Assembly: GCA_951804945.1 (NCBI GenBank)
Contig: OX638157.1
Span: 34,472,001 to 34,536,000 of the forward strand
Length of the DNA stretch: 64,000 bases
Direction: 5' to 3'
Source of the DNA: Podarcis cretensis
Taxonomy: Eukaryota
Below, one piece after another: positions 1,667 to 58,680 of the stretch (position 1 is its first letter; every line of letters starts with the position of its first letter). Below the pieces are notes generated by a model. It was not told the DNA's origin, searched no databases, and saw only the letters and a list, made by a program, of their open reading frames with translations. The translations under genes and the position numbers were made by a program.

Positions 1667-3539
1667 TGCTAGGGATTCAAATAGAAGACAAGTGCAAAGT
1701 TTGGACAATAAAGATGGGTGTTTTTCTATTTATTTTCAGTAGGTTTAATATCATCTGCTGGTAGATTTTTCAGAGATAGAAATCAGAGAGATCGCTGAAT
1801 GTGCAAGCAGTTGAAAAGGATAATATCTCTATTTCTTATCTATATGTTTGAATTCAGTGAATTCTATTATAAAACGAAGGTCCACTCCTGGGTTCACATT
1901 AAGTTCACATCTAAGCAGTCTGTCTTATCTTTTACTTTTTGCTTCTCTTATTTAATATATGAAAACCACAGGAAGAGGCTTACAAATTTGTCCAAAGAAA
2001 ATATAATCTTGTTGTATGGGGCGGTATATAAATTCAATATTTTTTTTTAAAACTGCTGTATTGCTTTTTTAAAAATAAATCATTAGTTGTCTGATTTCAA
2101 GTGGAAGCAGCACTGGAGATTGCCATGAAAGCAACAAAGGAAACTGCATCTTCAATCATGTTTGTTTCATAAAACACATAGAAGTCACATAGGCCAAACT
2201 GAGTGCCAGAATATTATTTTACATAATAATGCTCAACCTTCATTTATAAGAAAATCCATTTATGATTGCAGTAAATTTCTGCAGCTTGGAACCAATCAGA
2301 AGCATTATGACTTATTAATTTTAATGTAATTCCTTTCACTTTTGATAAATAATACAGCTGTCTCTTCTCTTTTAATACATATGAAACAGAATTAGGAATT
2401 ATTGCAACATTGCTAGTAAACCCATTCTCTTTAAAATACATTTTTTTAAATAGATTCTTCCTCTCTCTCTTTATGCTAGATAATTGCCATTTGAAATACT
2501 CAAAGATACAAAAATAATAGTGCTCATTCCCATCCTCATATACTTATAATATTGTAAAATTATATTTAAAATTAAAATTGTAGCATTATTGCAGCACAGT
2601 TCCATTCCATAAAGTCAATAGCTAAACAGTTCATTGTCTGAGACCCATTAAGTGATGTTGTTGTTTATGGATTAATTGATTTTAATACTTTTCATTTTAT
2701 GTCTCCCTTTTATCTATTTTTTTTTAAAAGGAAAAAGGCTCATCCACTATTCAAGAGTAATATGGAAGAAATGTAATGGATTCAGTGGTATATTTGGTGC
2801 ACTTAAAAAAAGCTGCATCAGTCCTATCTAGAAATAATTGCTGTTTTATTTATCATATTCTGCTAACTAGACTGGTTACTAAATCTAGCAATCCCTGCTG
2901 CACCTCATTTCTCTTAGTATTATTTGTCTGGGTTTTTATTGAAAATTAAAAAAGAAAATTTCTCTAAGGTTTGGGTATTATCTGGGCATTAGCAAAATGA
3001 ACTAATGTGCCTCATGTTATACCCTACTCCATGTCTACATCTATCTATGAGCACAAAATACACAGAGATAGGATTTCAAAAAGTAAAAACCAGGACACCC
3101 TGAAAGTTATTGAGCTTTTTTTTTTTTTTTACAAAAACTCCAAAAACATGTGGAAATCAACAACAAACCACCGCCTTCTGGAAATTCCCTCCGGATATGA
3201 CCCCTACCTTTGAAATCCTGGTAATGTCCCTACACACAGAGAATGTGAAATATAAAGTTAGATACAAAGAGCCCAGAGTGGAAGGCAAAGTTTCATAAAT
3301 TCTGCAAATTCACAGAGCTCAATTACACAGTTCTATAGCTGTTTTTTGCTTGGGTGAGAGATTGCACAATTTGCAACATAGGCAGAACCAGAATGACATC
3401 TTTGAATTTAGTTGTCCTTCTTCATAGAGCACATTCCAAAGAAGAACATCTTTGGATCAGAGCAACACGCAATAGAGTCTCTCAGAGATTTGCATCGGCT
3501 ATAAAGATCTAGTTTTGCTATCATGATGATGATGATGGT

Positions 3540-3655
3540 TTTATTATTTTTACCCCACCCATCTGGCTGGGTTGCCTCAGTCACTCTGGGCAGCTTCTAA
3601 CACATATAAAAACATAATAAAATATCAAACATTAAAAGCTTCCTGATACAGGGCT
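3540..3655 (-). mobile_element. L2 LINE 3' end fragment
   Basis: Reverse complement matches the 3' end of the L2 copy at 58570-58680 (cccagagtggctgggg...ccagccagatgggtggggta). Confidence 0.75.
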
Positions 3656-41016: not shown

Positions 41017-41087
41017 CATGCTTGGCAGGGGGTTGGACTCGATGGCCCTTGTGGTCTCTTCCAACTCTATGATTCTATGATTCTATG
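41017..41087 (+). mobile_element. Young CR1 3'-terminal fragment
   Basis: ggggttggactcgatggcccttgtggtctcttccaactctatgattctatgattctatg; near-consensus (ATTCTATG)n tail, flanked by gccat on both sides. Confidence 0.85.
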
Positions 41088-46312: not shown

Positions 46313-48292
46313 TTTTTTCTTTTGAAAACAGCACAATGGAATGCTTCTTTGGCAGCCAACTTCTTGAGGATAGCACTGAGCAAGCCCTATTTCTGATTAT
46401 GCAGTAGTGGGGAATCTACATGGAAATTATGGTCTGGAAAGGACAAATCCCTTGTTAGGAGGAAGTGACCTGCCTATTTTGTGAAGAAACCCACCTGCTT
46501 CTGGTTACCTCTCCCATTTTGCAGATGCAACCAGATTTCTTCTTTCAAAAAGGACAAACCAGAAGTGGAAGGGAGAAGCAGAAAACAAGTGATGCTTTGA
46601 CCACAATCCAGATGTACATGGCCCTAACTAAGAACAAGGCACCCTCTTTTTTGGAGTTGGGGAGGTTTGCTTTTCGAAACCACCTTTTGAATATTAGCTA
46701 TTGTAAAGCAGGGGGCAGTAAAGCAGTATGGTCCTCCACATACAGTTGGGCTCCAGCTGCTGGTTAATGGTCAGGGATGAGGGGAGCTGTAGTGCAACAA
46801 TATCTTGAGAGCCACGGGTTGGACACGCTCATTCTAAAAGATAAACCTGCTGAAGTTTGTGATCTAGCTTTCTTGGTAATCAAATCAATGCTGACCCAAA
46901 TGAAGTAAAACAACACAATAAAAGTGAATTAATCTGCAGGTTATTTAGTTTAGTAATAACCTTTACCTTCAGGGGTTTTTTTTATGTAAAGCTTGGGATT
47001 TTGGTTCTGAACATTTCTACTAGCATTGCTTTCTAAAGTCTGAGGAACTGATTTCTGAAATGACAGAGTAATGTCAACTTTTATAATGCTTCACCTAAGC
47101 ACTTTTTTTTGGTGATGCAGCAAATGTTGGCATTGGGCTGCTTTGCCATCTTAGCTAATTGGGACAAACTGGCCCCAGTGTTCAATATGTGATACCTTTT
47201 AAATTTTATCTTGTATTATAAATTTTTAGTGTTTCTTTGCATTTTCATATTAAAGGGATTCATATTACAACGGTTATCTGTCCAAGACTCTTTGTATTTT
47301 CTAATTGGGCTGTACAGTGTCTTTTATGAGCCTCAAGATAAATAATCAAAGAACCACAGGCTTGATGCTGCTTTTTGTTACTCATATAAAACACACAGAG
47401 AACACACACAGCCATTGTTACATATAAATACTTAAATTTCTACCAACATATCTATATCATTTTAATTGATTATTGTGTTATTCAAACAAAAGCATATCCT
47501 ATAAGTGAAAGCCCACCTGGGCCTTAATAATCTTGATAACATTTGGAGACAACAGAGGCTGCATTCAGACATCACTTCATCCCATTTTCCTGACATACCC
47601 TTATGTCATAATTTATGCATTTTAAGTGACCTTTGACATGATGGAAAATCCACTTCTTGAAATCTGGTAGAAGGTTAACATTCATTTTCATGTTAATTGC
47701 TTACAGGAATAAACAAACAAACCTGTTTTCATGCCTTTTAACCCAGAAAATAATTGGAGGAGGCGGGTTCTGCTGTAATCTTCCAGCTGTTTTCATAGAT
47801 TGCGCCATGTGATAAAATCTGGAGCAGGACTTCAGCATACGGTTCTTTCTGGCTGTTTTCATGGGTGAATCATGGGGAACAGAAACACATATGAACAGAA
47901 AGGGTCATAACACGGCCAATCACATCCACTGCTTTGTTATACCATGCCCACTGGTATGAAAGAATTTTACTGTGACATGGTGGTATATTGATCAAAAAGG
48001 CCCAGTTCCAAAGTGTTTATCCACAGTTTCTTTTGTGCTGTGTTTCTAGGCACAGGCCTGAGCTTTCAAGGTCTGTGTCCGATCAGGGATTTTGTGTTTG
48101 TATGTCCTGCCATTTTCCCTGGGAAAACCCATCACTGAATTGGAGTAAACAGCAATCTGTAGATAACAATTTTATTATTTATACCCCACCCATCTGGTTG
48201 TGTTTTCCCAGCCACTGTGTGGTTTCCAGCACATATAAAAACATTTAAAAAATGTCCAGTAGCACCTTAGAGACCAAGTGAGTTTGTTCTTG

Positions 48293-48330
48293 ATATAAGC
48301 TTTCATGTGTATGCACACTTCTTCAGATAC
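48293..48330 (-). ncRNA. Minimal type-I hammerhead ribozyme (core intact)
   Basis: Minus strand: GUAU-CUGAAGA-A-GUGUG CAUA CACAU-GAAA-GC-UU-AUAU, i.e. stem I, CUGANGA, stem II, GAAA, palindromic AGCU stem III, and NUH site CUU. Confidence 0.7.
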
Positions 48331-48344
48331 ACTGAAACAGAAGT

Positions 48345-48382
48345 GTATCTGAAGAAGTGTGCATGCACACAAAAGCTTATAC
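48345..48382 (+). ncRNA. Minimal type-I hammerhead ribozyme (G12>A, likely inactive)
   Basis: GUAU-CUGAAGA-A-GUGUG CAUG CACAC-AAAA-GC-UU-AUAC; GAAA has become AAAA, consistent with CpG decay. Confidence 0.6.
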
Positions 48383-49380
48383 CAAGAACAAACTTAGTTG
48401 GTCTCTAAGGTGCCACTGGACATTTTTTTAATTATTTTTTAATATATTTTGACTGCGTCAGACCAACACGGCTACCTACCTAAATATAAAAACATAATAA
48501 AATGTCAAACATTAAAACTTTCTGATACAGGGCTTGTTCTACTTCAGTGGTAAAACAGGGGTTTTCCCGGGAAAAGCGCCAGGACAAAAGCCCATTCAGA
48601 CATGGACCTGGAATGTCTGGAACTGGACCTAGAAAAATGGCACAAATGGAACTGTGAATGAGTCCTTAGTCTCCATGTACCCATACTTTCCCTTGGCCTT
48701 CTAGGTCTAAATCCAGATGGGGAGGTCAAAATGCTTGAGATTAGCAAATCTGTCCAGGAAAACTAACCTGATAATCCGAATGCACCCAGAGTTGCTTAAG
48801 CAACTTGGATACTGAAGAACTGGGGCAGGTCCACACATTGATTCTTGCTCTACTGAAATAAAGACAGAACTTTGAAGAGGAAGGCTTGGAGGGATCACAA
48901 CGGAGTCTGCTCTTTCCTTAGCAACGGCACACACCTCAGAGACACTTGAAATATAGGAAATCAAAGTAACACAGATTCATACCATATGAAAATTAGGCGT
49001 ACCTTGTAGCCAGAAAATAATATTGGATGCTTTCATTTCTTTGCTGCATTTGCTTGTTCGAAGTGACCTCTGAAGTACTGAACAGCACTCCTCTGAATAC
49101 CACTTGCTCTCCTGCCATGCTTTTGGGCTTATCAGAGACATCTGGTGGGCCATTGTGAGAACTGAATGGTGGACGACATAGACCTTTGTTCTGATCCAGC
49201 AGGACTATTTTTATGTTGGAAATGTTAGGAAATCAACAAGATTCCTGGGAACTTGTGAAAAAAAATTAACAATCCCCATCTCCCAGCAACATACTTGCTC
49301 ACATTTACATGAACTCACATAGGATCTAAGTAGATGTTATATGGAAGTCTCATGAGTGTATCTCTTGACATAATTTTCCT

Positions 49381-58176: not shown

Positions 58177-58680
58177 AGGGTACCTTTGAAAGTGACACAG
58201 AAGCTACAATTAATGAAGAATGCTGCAGCTAGACTGGTGACTTGGAATGGCCACTGAGACCATATAACACTGGTCCTGAAAGACTTCTAGTATTTTTCCA
58301 AACACAATTCAAAGTGCTGGTGCTGACCTTTAAAACCCTAAATGGCCTCAGCCCAGTATACCTGAAGGAGCGTCTCCACCCCCATTGTTCAGCCCGGACA
58401 CTGAGGTCCAGCGCCAAGGGCCTTCTGGCGGTTCCCTCACTGCAAGAAGTGAGGATACAGGGAACAAGGCAGAGGGCATTCTTGGTAGTGGTCGCCCCCC
58501 CAGTGGAACACCCTCCCATCAGATGTCAAGGAAATAAACAACTATTTGACATTTAGAAGACATCTGAAGGCAACCCTGTTTAGGAAAGTTTTTAATCTTT
58601 GATGTTTTATTTTATTTTTTAATATTGTTGGGAGCCACCCAGAGTGGCTGGGGAAACCCAGCCAGATGGGTGGGGTATAT
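58177..58680 (+). mobile_element. L2 LINE 3' fragment (ORF2 C-terminus plus 3' UTR)
   Basis: Translates to PLKVTQKLQLMKNAAARLVT and QFKVLVLTFKTLNGLSPVYLKERL, hallmark L2 ORF2 C-terminal motifs; frameshifted. Confidence 0.9.

Follow-up and report, generated by a model that had tools for sequence, protein, structure and literature searches.

Introduction

Among the systems described so far, the closest to the sequence analysed here are Penelope-like elements (PLEs). For the Neptune-type EN+ members of this group, an inverted truncated copy and a one-sided tail are described as the usual arrangement, and a C-x4-C-xx-C linker is assigned to Neptune and Nematis (PMC8557442). Pairs of hammerhead motifs on opposite strands, 100-700 bp apart, have already been reported in PMC4209133. 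The account of integration given in PMC11167929 concerns a lizard Poseidon element: cutting and extension affect both target strands, the tail is delimited by two internal sites from which reverse transcription starts, the element favours A/T-rich targets, and it can do without hammerhead cleavage. Penelope of D. virilis is described as having an internal, TATA-less promoter and a composite arrangement, in which the 3' UTR belonging to the upstream unit serves the following one (PMC2377424).

In this context, we analysed a 64,000-nt stretch of the Podarcis cretensis genome (the window; assembly GCA_951804945.1, contig OX638157.1, forward-strand positions 34,472,001 to 34,536,000), in which a palindromic insert carrying a hammerhead motif on each strand had been noticed from the letters alone. 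The palindrome is an ordinary decayed double insertion of a Penelope-type end, one of hundreds with differing junctions. The locus itself is a textbook remnant of known architecture, and palindromes of this kind mimic MITEs or miRNA precursors. A pile-up of 5' ends across the whole family carries more interest: the many copies that start at one base with an extra G likely mark a capped transcription start at ribozyme base 1. We found no paper on this pile-up in the literature searched, and one may exist.

Anatomy and parentage of the insert

The insert comprises 239 bp (48245-48483) and stands between the two copies of an exact 12-bp duplication, ATATAAAAACAT, at 48233-48244 and 48484-48495. 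Its inverted arms (48247-48333 and 48342-48428) measure 87 nt each, lie 8 nt apart and are identical at 80 of 87 positions, with 7 mismatches; a tail (48429-48483) directly follows the plus arm. Insert length, duplication, arms, their spacing and the tail had been recognized in the original prediction, and so had an empty site near 3600-3655: when the insert is excised in silico, the restored site is 85% identical over 117 columns to a repeat at 3539-3655. The host repeat split by the insert (48169-48540, minus strand) is about 120 bp long and belongs to an abundant dispersed family, with 80% identity to 58574-58679 and many matches in the retrieved loci. It is a putative L2 3' end, as originally labelled, the comparisons themselves demonstrating its repetitiveness only. 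A degenerate inverted repeat (48019-48145 and 48545-48659, 70-82% in two segments) flanks the host repeat near-symmetrically and suggests a three-level nest, with the Penelope insert inside the host repeat and the host repeat inside an old palindromic element.

The parent was sought in the genome (1.5 Gb, 51 contigs), where the sense arm gave 2485 candidates, 40 of which were scored, and a 26-nt anchor had 3210 exact matches. Long copies were reached through a decayed ORF piece beside the copy in L014, which led to 67 matches and from there to 14 longer regions that were examined. Three frames of the decayed piece gave no Pfam match, and family membership was established from the longer copies. 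In one of them, L173, three pseudo-LTRs recur at a spacing of 3011 bp. Two open frames of 925 residues accompany them, with matches to RVT_1 (E 1e-11) and, at the cutoff of that family, to GIY-YIG (E 1.4e-4), and a C-x4-C-xx-C linker lies upstream of the GIY-YIG motif. Both arms of the insert align to the L173 pseudo-LTR, and the tail corresponds to the sequence with which the ORF region begins. The proposed Penelope origin is thereby borne out, the arms matching the pseudo-LTR of elements that combine a reverse transcriptase with GIY-YIG. Judged from these alignments and domains, the insert is a derivative of an EN+ Penelope-like element with a Neptune-type linker. We presume Neptune rather than Nematis, on the understanding that vertebrate elements of this kind are Neptune.

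L173 represents a sister subfamily, 81-83% identical to the insert over the arm and, between natural copies, at 37 of 38 positions over the hammerhead. An intact master of the insert's own subfamily was not found among the retrieved copies, all long open frames belonging to the sister subfamily. Within the family, a young subfamily (L173 1739-7888, L174, L176, L178, L180 and L181) consists of copies more than 99% identical with intact frames of about 925 residues, which suggests recent activity; such near-identical copies would suit a Neptune-type in vitro system.

Positions in the element are numbered here from q1 (window 48342), so that q4 (48345) is base 1 of hammerhead stem I and the predicted cut falls at q37/q38. 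In the alignment to L173, the 8 nt between the arms are element sequence upstream of the hammerhead, borne by the minus arm alone, and not the loop or spacer for which they had been taken. With these bases included, the minus-strand arm occupies 48245-48344; it extends to q-11 at 48344 and runs into a T-rich tract at its other end, without the tail. The sense arm and tail (48342-48483, plus strand) align to the pseudo-LTR and the ORF start. The two share AGT at 48342-48344, a microhomology at the head-to-head junction that either arm may own.

Hammerhead motifs in the two arms

Both arms present the layout GUAU / CUGAAGA / extra A / 5-bp stem II / GAAA / AGCU / NUH, at 48293-48330 on the minus strand and at 48345-48382 on the plus strand. 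An Rfam scan to E=10 found no hammerhead family, and the call accordingly rests on pattern and fold; the generic hairpin and miRNA matches that the scan did return all lay below their gathering scores and were dismissed. Intact copies of the family show the full set of features of a minimal type I hammerhead, namely CUGAnGA, the extra base, stem II, GAAA, a palindromic 15.2-16.2, NUH and a short stem I. Neither arm of the locus is a clean ribozyme, because the plus arm carries G12>A (48371) and the minus arm C11.1>U (48305). The former change had been predicted; the latter, together with a stem I C>U (48293) that leaves AUAU in place of AUAC and a loop II G>A (48310), contradicts the intact core attributed to the minus copy. 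The assignment as minimal hammerheads thus stands by motif layout and family fold, with the cores of both arms damaged. G12 is the general base of the hammerhead. Neither arm combines an intact G12 with an intact G10.1-C11.1 pair, which is termed highly conserved in PMC4209133.

The two core changes affect one and the same CpG. Across the family, 16 of 46 sampled hammerheads are fully intact, G12>A occurs in 9 and C11.1>T in 7. Set against 13 arms sampled from its subfamily, the locus shows five private changes in the minus arm and two in the plus arm, none of them compensatory, and later mutation of the locus looks neutral.

Efficient cleavage as dimers, initially stated for such motifs, is too strong a wording: PMC4209133 describes an inactive monomer and only low activity of dimer and trimer, and PMC11167929 cleavage only when the element's protein is present. 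Fold prediction for two copies of the minus motif of the locus did not yield a hammerhead-like dimer. RNAs of the family with various ends were folded to see whether the upstream sequence might act as an anti-ribozyme switch: the core is predicted to be open in q4-45, q4-140 and q-15-45, and masked in q-40-80 and q-100-140 but in q4-80 as well. In intact copies, stem II and its loop form a perfect 14-nt palindrome (L173 4762-4775, in the q13-26 region; window 48357-48370), and two copies are predicted to co-fold with intermolecular stems I and II at -30.6 kcal/mol. Pairing of this sort could offer a second way to dimerize, in addition to the usual swap of stem III.

Head-to-head copies across the family

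The exact 23-nt junction of the locus occurs twice in the genome, the second time in L032. That copy belongs to another subfamily and contains extra repeated fragments, so its junction is an independent event. A head-to-head pattern with a spacer of 0-30 nt has 838 matches, an exact-match count in which some loci figure twice. Among the 50 matches listed the junctions are many, the commonest being seen five times and that of the locus not at all.

An unbiased sample was formed by the 99 anchor matches, out of 3210, that come first by position; they represent 87 insertions. An inverted partner of the family lies upstream of 49 of these insertions and downstream of none. The tail is similarly one-sided: among the 60 arms with a partner, it is present on one arm only in 47 and on both in none, with neither tail detected in 13. 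Flanking repeats of 11-14 bp were found by automatic detection at 22 of the 87 insertions. L174, L176, L178, L180 and L181 have kilobase inverted arms, one ending near +134 and the other near +96, and L173 is a partial tandem of pseudo-LTRs. The architecture of the locus is the published Penelope architecture.

Two further observations concern the family at large. In many junctions, both in L022, L028, L032 and L153 and among those listed, brief stretches from the initial 10-20 nt of the hammerhead have been copied again, which points to repeated switching of template at the RNA 5' end. Several copies (L067, L068, L071, L077, L122, L124, L163 and L166) break at one common point shortly after the anchor, beyond which other abundant repeats follow; this suggests that the pseudo-LTR contains a target hotspot for these repeats.

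A pile-up of 5' ends at ribozyme base 1

The 5' ends of the 99 sampled arms, a count that includes 4 unanchored alignments, are concentrated at one base: 22 fall at q4 and 35 within q1-q5, with 21 upstream and 43 spread over q6-q47. A peak at the cleavage site was considered and rejected, since only 3 of 99 ends lie at q38, no more than at its neighbours, and each follows the C of a subfamily variant. Among 30 arms that stop at q4, 13 have G as the preceding base and 9 have T, while A and C are found 4 times each (p = 0.008). In the whole genome, exact copies of the 19-mer that begins at q4 follow the templated T in 6579 cases and a different base in 2567; G accounts for 1680 of these 2567 non-templated bases, 65% against the 31% expected. 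The control position q8 has 393 cases, with G in 14 of 100 among the matches listed, and q-5 has 54, with G in 16 (30%). A point mutation of the templated T was rejected as the source of the extra G: C, the transition, is the rarest base listed, and upstream those copies stop there. The other conspicuous classes differ in composition, q2 having 1642 non-consensus neighbours (T in 80 of 100 among the matches listed) and q1 372, mostly A; they may be secondary starts or junction microhomology.

Upstream of q4, 80 longer copies (from all retrieved loci, duplicates kept) show a TATA-like motif at -31 in 21 cases and at -33 in 29, and lack it in 27. The locus copy is without the box; its sense arm fits a start at q4, but without the extra G.

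The 5'-end signature is a real statistical feature and has a likely cause. From its position and composition, q4 is probably the main capped transcription start. A TATA-like box located within the 3' UTR of the unit upstream would drive this start, and the many short copies would be run-off cDNAs of uncleaved RNA in which the G was copied from the cap. An untemplated 5' G in L1 has been read as possible cap copying (PMC9341517). The extra G is better evidence of an RNA end than of a cap, since terminal-transferase activity could add a base at any RNA end. If q4 is the capped start, the ribozyme lies at the very 5' end of the RNA.

It is less probable, by a good margin, that the insertion took place as described below while the pile-up at q4 came from an upstream splice acceptor, from cutting within the hairpin loop of a cDNA or from pausing of the enzyme. 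Upstream, the sequence resembles a pyrimidine tract closed by CAG at q2, and the D. virilis intron is described as ending at the 5' end of helix I (PMC4209133). Splicing, however, would produce an exon beginning at q3 behind a common upstream exon, whereas the copies that end at q4 share only one G upstream. A small TTCAG/CTGAA hairpin could place q4 in its loop, and the ends are scattered over q1-q5, yet neither a pause nor a hairpin cut gives a reason for 65% G where the controls have 14% and 30%.

RNA data were available from four 2026 runs of a species bearing the family, which may be another than that of the genome; 6-12% of each run was covered, and none was a small-RNA run. On L173, pseudo-LTR pieces appear on both strands with loose ends at q4, and the 5' part of the ORF is near zero depth. 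The loose ends mirror genomic junctions and are therefore not independent evidence. Molecule starts on L173 form no pile at q4 or at the cut site, and fragmented Illumina libraries are unable to show one.

Taking a capped start at q4 together with the priming sites discussed below, the thousands of short copies could form a fossil map of the element's RNA, a reading about which we are evenly divided. The capped start would lie at hammerhead base 1, and cDNAs primed about 95 and 140 nt downstream would resemble strong-stop products, end by run-off at the cap and be inserted either alone or as head-to-head pairs. Ribozyme cutting 34 nt below the cap would act as a decapping switch, and a jump of the cDNA to the 3' repeat would rebuild pseudo-LTR tandems. 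So short a run-off product recalls the strong-stop DNA of LTR elements. Literature searches for a Penelope 5'-end pile-up, a TATA start, a cap-added base, strong-stop products or an inverted hairpin in Neptune or lizards found no account, supplements and many subscription papers lying outside their scope; the insertion ends mapped in Fig. S2 of PMC11167929 may already reveal such a pile-up.

Origin of the insert

We hold with considerable confidence that the insert is a head-to-head pseudo-LTR copy, 5'-truncated in both arms and encoding no protein, likely made in one event from two cDNAs and likely inert since. Its parent family, architecture, duplication, varied junctions and decay are directly observed. 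A merely truncated inverted insertion had been the second option of the original prediction and is the correct one of its two.

To judge from the account in PMC11167929, the endonuclease would cut both target strands about 12 nt apart in A/T-rich DNA. Reverse transcription would then be primed by one target strand at the tail, at about q140, and by the other within the T-rich tract, some 45 nt further upstream; these priming steps draw on in vitro data for a Poseidon-clade element of another lizard, outside the family of the insert. The first cDNA would run to q1-q4 and the second to q-11, and their ends would be joined over AGT. The minus arm of the locus and 21 of the 99 sampled arms extend upstream of q1, which requires a longer template.

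Instead of two separately primed cDNAs, a single cDNA could have folded back on itself. Short internal inverted repeats exist in the region and junctions often carry re-copied fragments. We nevertheless regard this origin as improbable: the arms overlap only up to differing 5' points, the outer ends lie at two fixed positions, the tail and the T-rich tract, which match the two start sites described in PMC11167929, and with the most evident fold-back at this site the sense arm would begin again at q17, not at q1-q4.

It is very doubtful that the copy was recruited as a regulatory hairpin within a read-through transcript, be it to serve as a precursor of small RNAs, as a substrate of editing or as a masked ribozyme. 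Either strand is predicted to form a hairpin with an 87-bp stem at about -140 kcal/mol (-139 computed), and pieces of the family, inverted junctions included, do appear in RNA on both strands, from other loci. Were the locus transcribed, the originally proposed hairpin would be expected to form; the suggested supply to Dicer or ADAR finds no support in these data. Read-through RNA at the locus, by contrast, was not seen in the four runs: the unique flanks (46886-47866 and 48521-49174) have zero depth, save 0.1 in one bin of one run, and 96-98% of the reads placed on the window run on into other loci. The differences between the arms are uncompensated, and the miRNA matches stay under threshold. 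Two candidate signals in the reads were discarded. Apparent A>G editing at 48371 and 48305 corresponds to the intact bases of other copies, and a 117-nt GT..AG skip from 48345 (5 reads), which resembled an intron, has sides of 20 nt with a letter between. Elsewhere in the window, a small fragment of a different, highly transcribed repeat occupies 41019-41087; reads in the hundreds have one common upstream sequence there.

The least probable reading, which can largely be set aside, is a self-propagating mini-element, non-autonomous and of MITE or retrozyme type, in which the palindrome would be copied as a unit: a clean duplication, the lack of an ORF, ribozyme motifs, one short junction type seen five times among the 50 matches listed and the existence of non-autonomous hammerhead-bearing Penelope derivatives (10.64898/2026.07.22.740005) speak for it, but arm lengths and junctions vary freely, a head-to-tail array and a TATA-like box are absent from the locus copy, and in 1.5 Gb the exact 23-nt junction, which had been suggested as the test of a fixed-junction element, occurs twice, once independently, against 838 varied head-to-head matches.

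Comparison with known systems

The family of the insert resembles the Neptune-type EN+ PLEs of PMC8557442 in having a reverse transcriptase followed by GIY-YIG in one ORF, the CX4CxxC linker, partial tandems that form pseudo-LTRs, an inverted truncated copy at the 5' side, a one-sided tail and a hammerhead in the pseudo-LTR. In contrast to the elements described there, the locus copy is a terminal remnant of 0.24 kb only.

PAc, the Poseidon element of Anolis carolinensis (PMC11167929), likewise has an A/T-rich target, two internal starts of reverse transcription bounding the tail and extension of both strands, with uncleaved RNA as the main template, which the few 5' ends at the cleavage site parallel here. 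Its ORF starts inside hammerhead stem II, whereas in the present family the first ATG lies about 100 nt past the motif start, and PAc is not known to show 5'-end pile-ups or an extra G. The start proposed at q4 differs from the internal TATA-less promoter reported for D. virilis Penelope and fits its composite arrangement (PMC2377424).

At the level of the ribozyme, the motifs share with the minimal hammerheads of metazoan PLEs, as presented in PMC4209133, a short stem I, the extra base between 9 and 10.1, a palindromic 15.2-16.2 and the lack of loop III; copies there are mostly solo, and reptiles are noted. They differ in that both copies at the locus are mutated at the C11.1-G12 CpG and that stem II and loop of intact copies make up a 14-nt palindrome. 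Non-LTR retrozymes as described in 10.64898/2026.07.22.740005 are also protein-free, derived from pseudo-LTRs and equipped with a type I hammerhead. They are recognized by tandem units in head-to-tail order that include two or more complete hammerheads in succession, unlike the locus, which is a single damaged head-to-head pair.

Finally, the extra G at the 5' junction is paralleled in full-length L1, where it is read as possible cap copying; in contrast to L1 as described in PMC9341517, the run-off product here would be about 140 nt long, because priming is internal and near the 5' end of the RNA.
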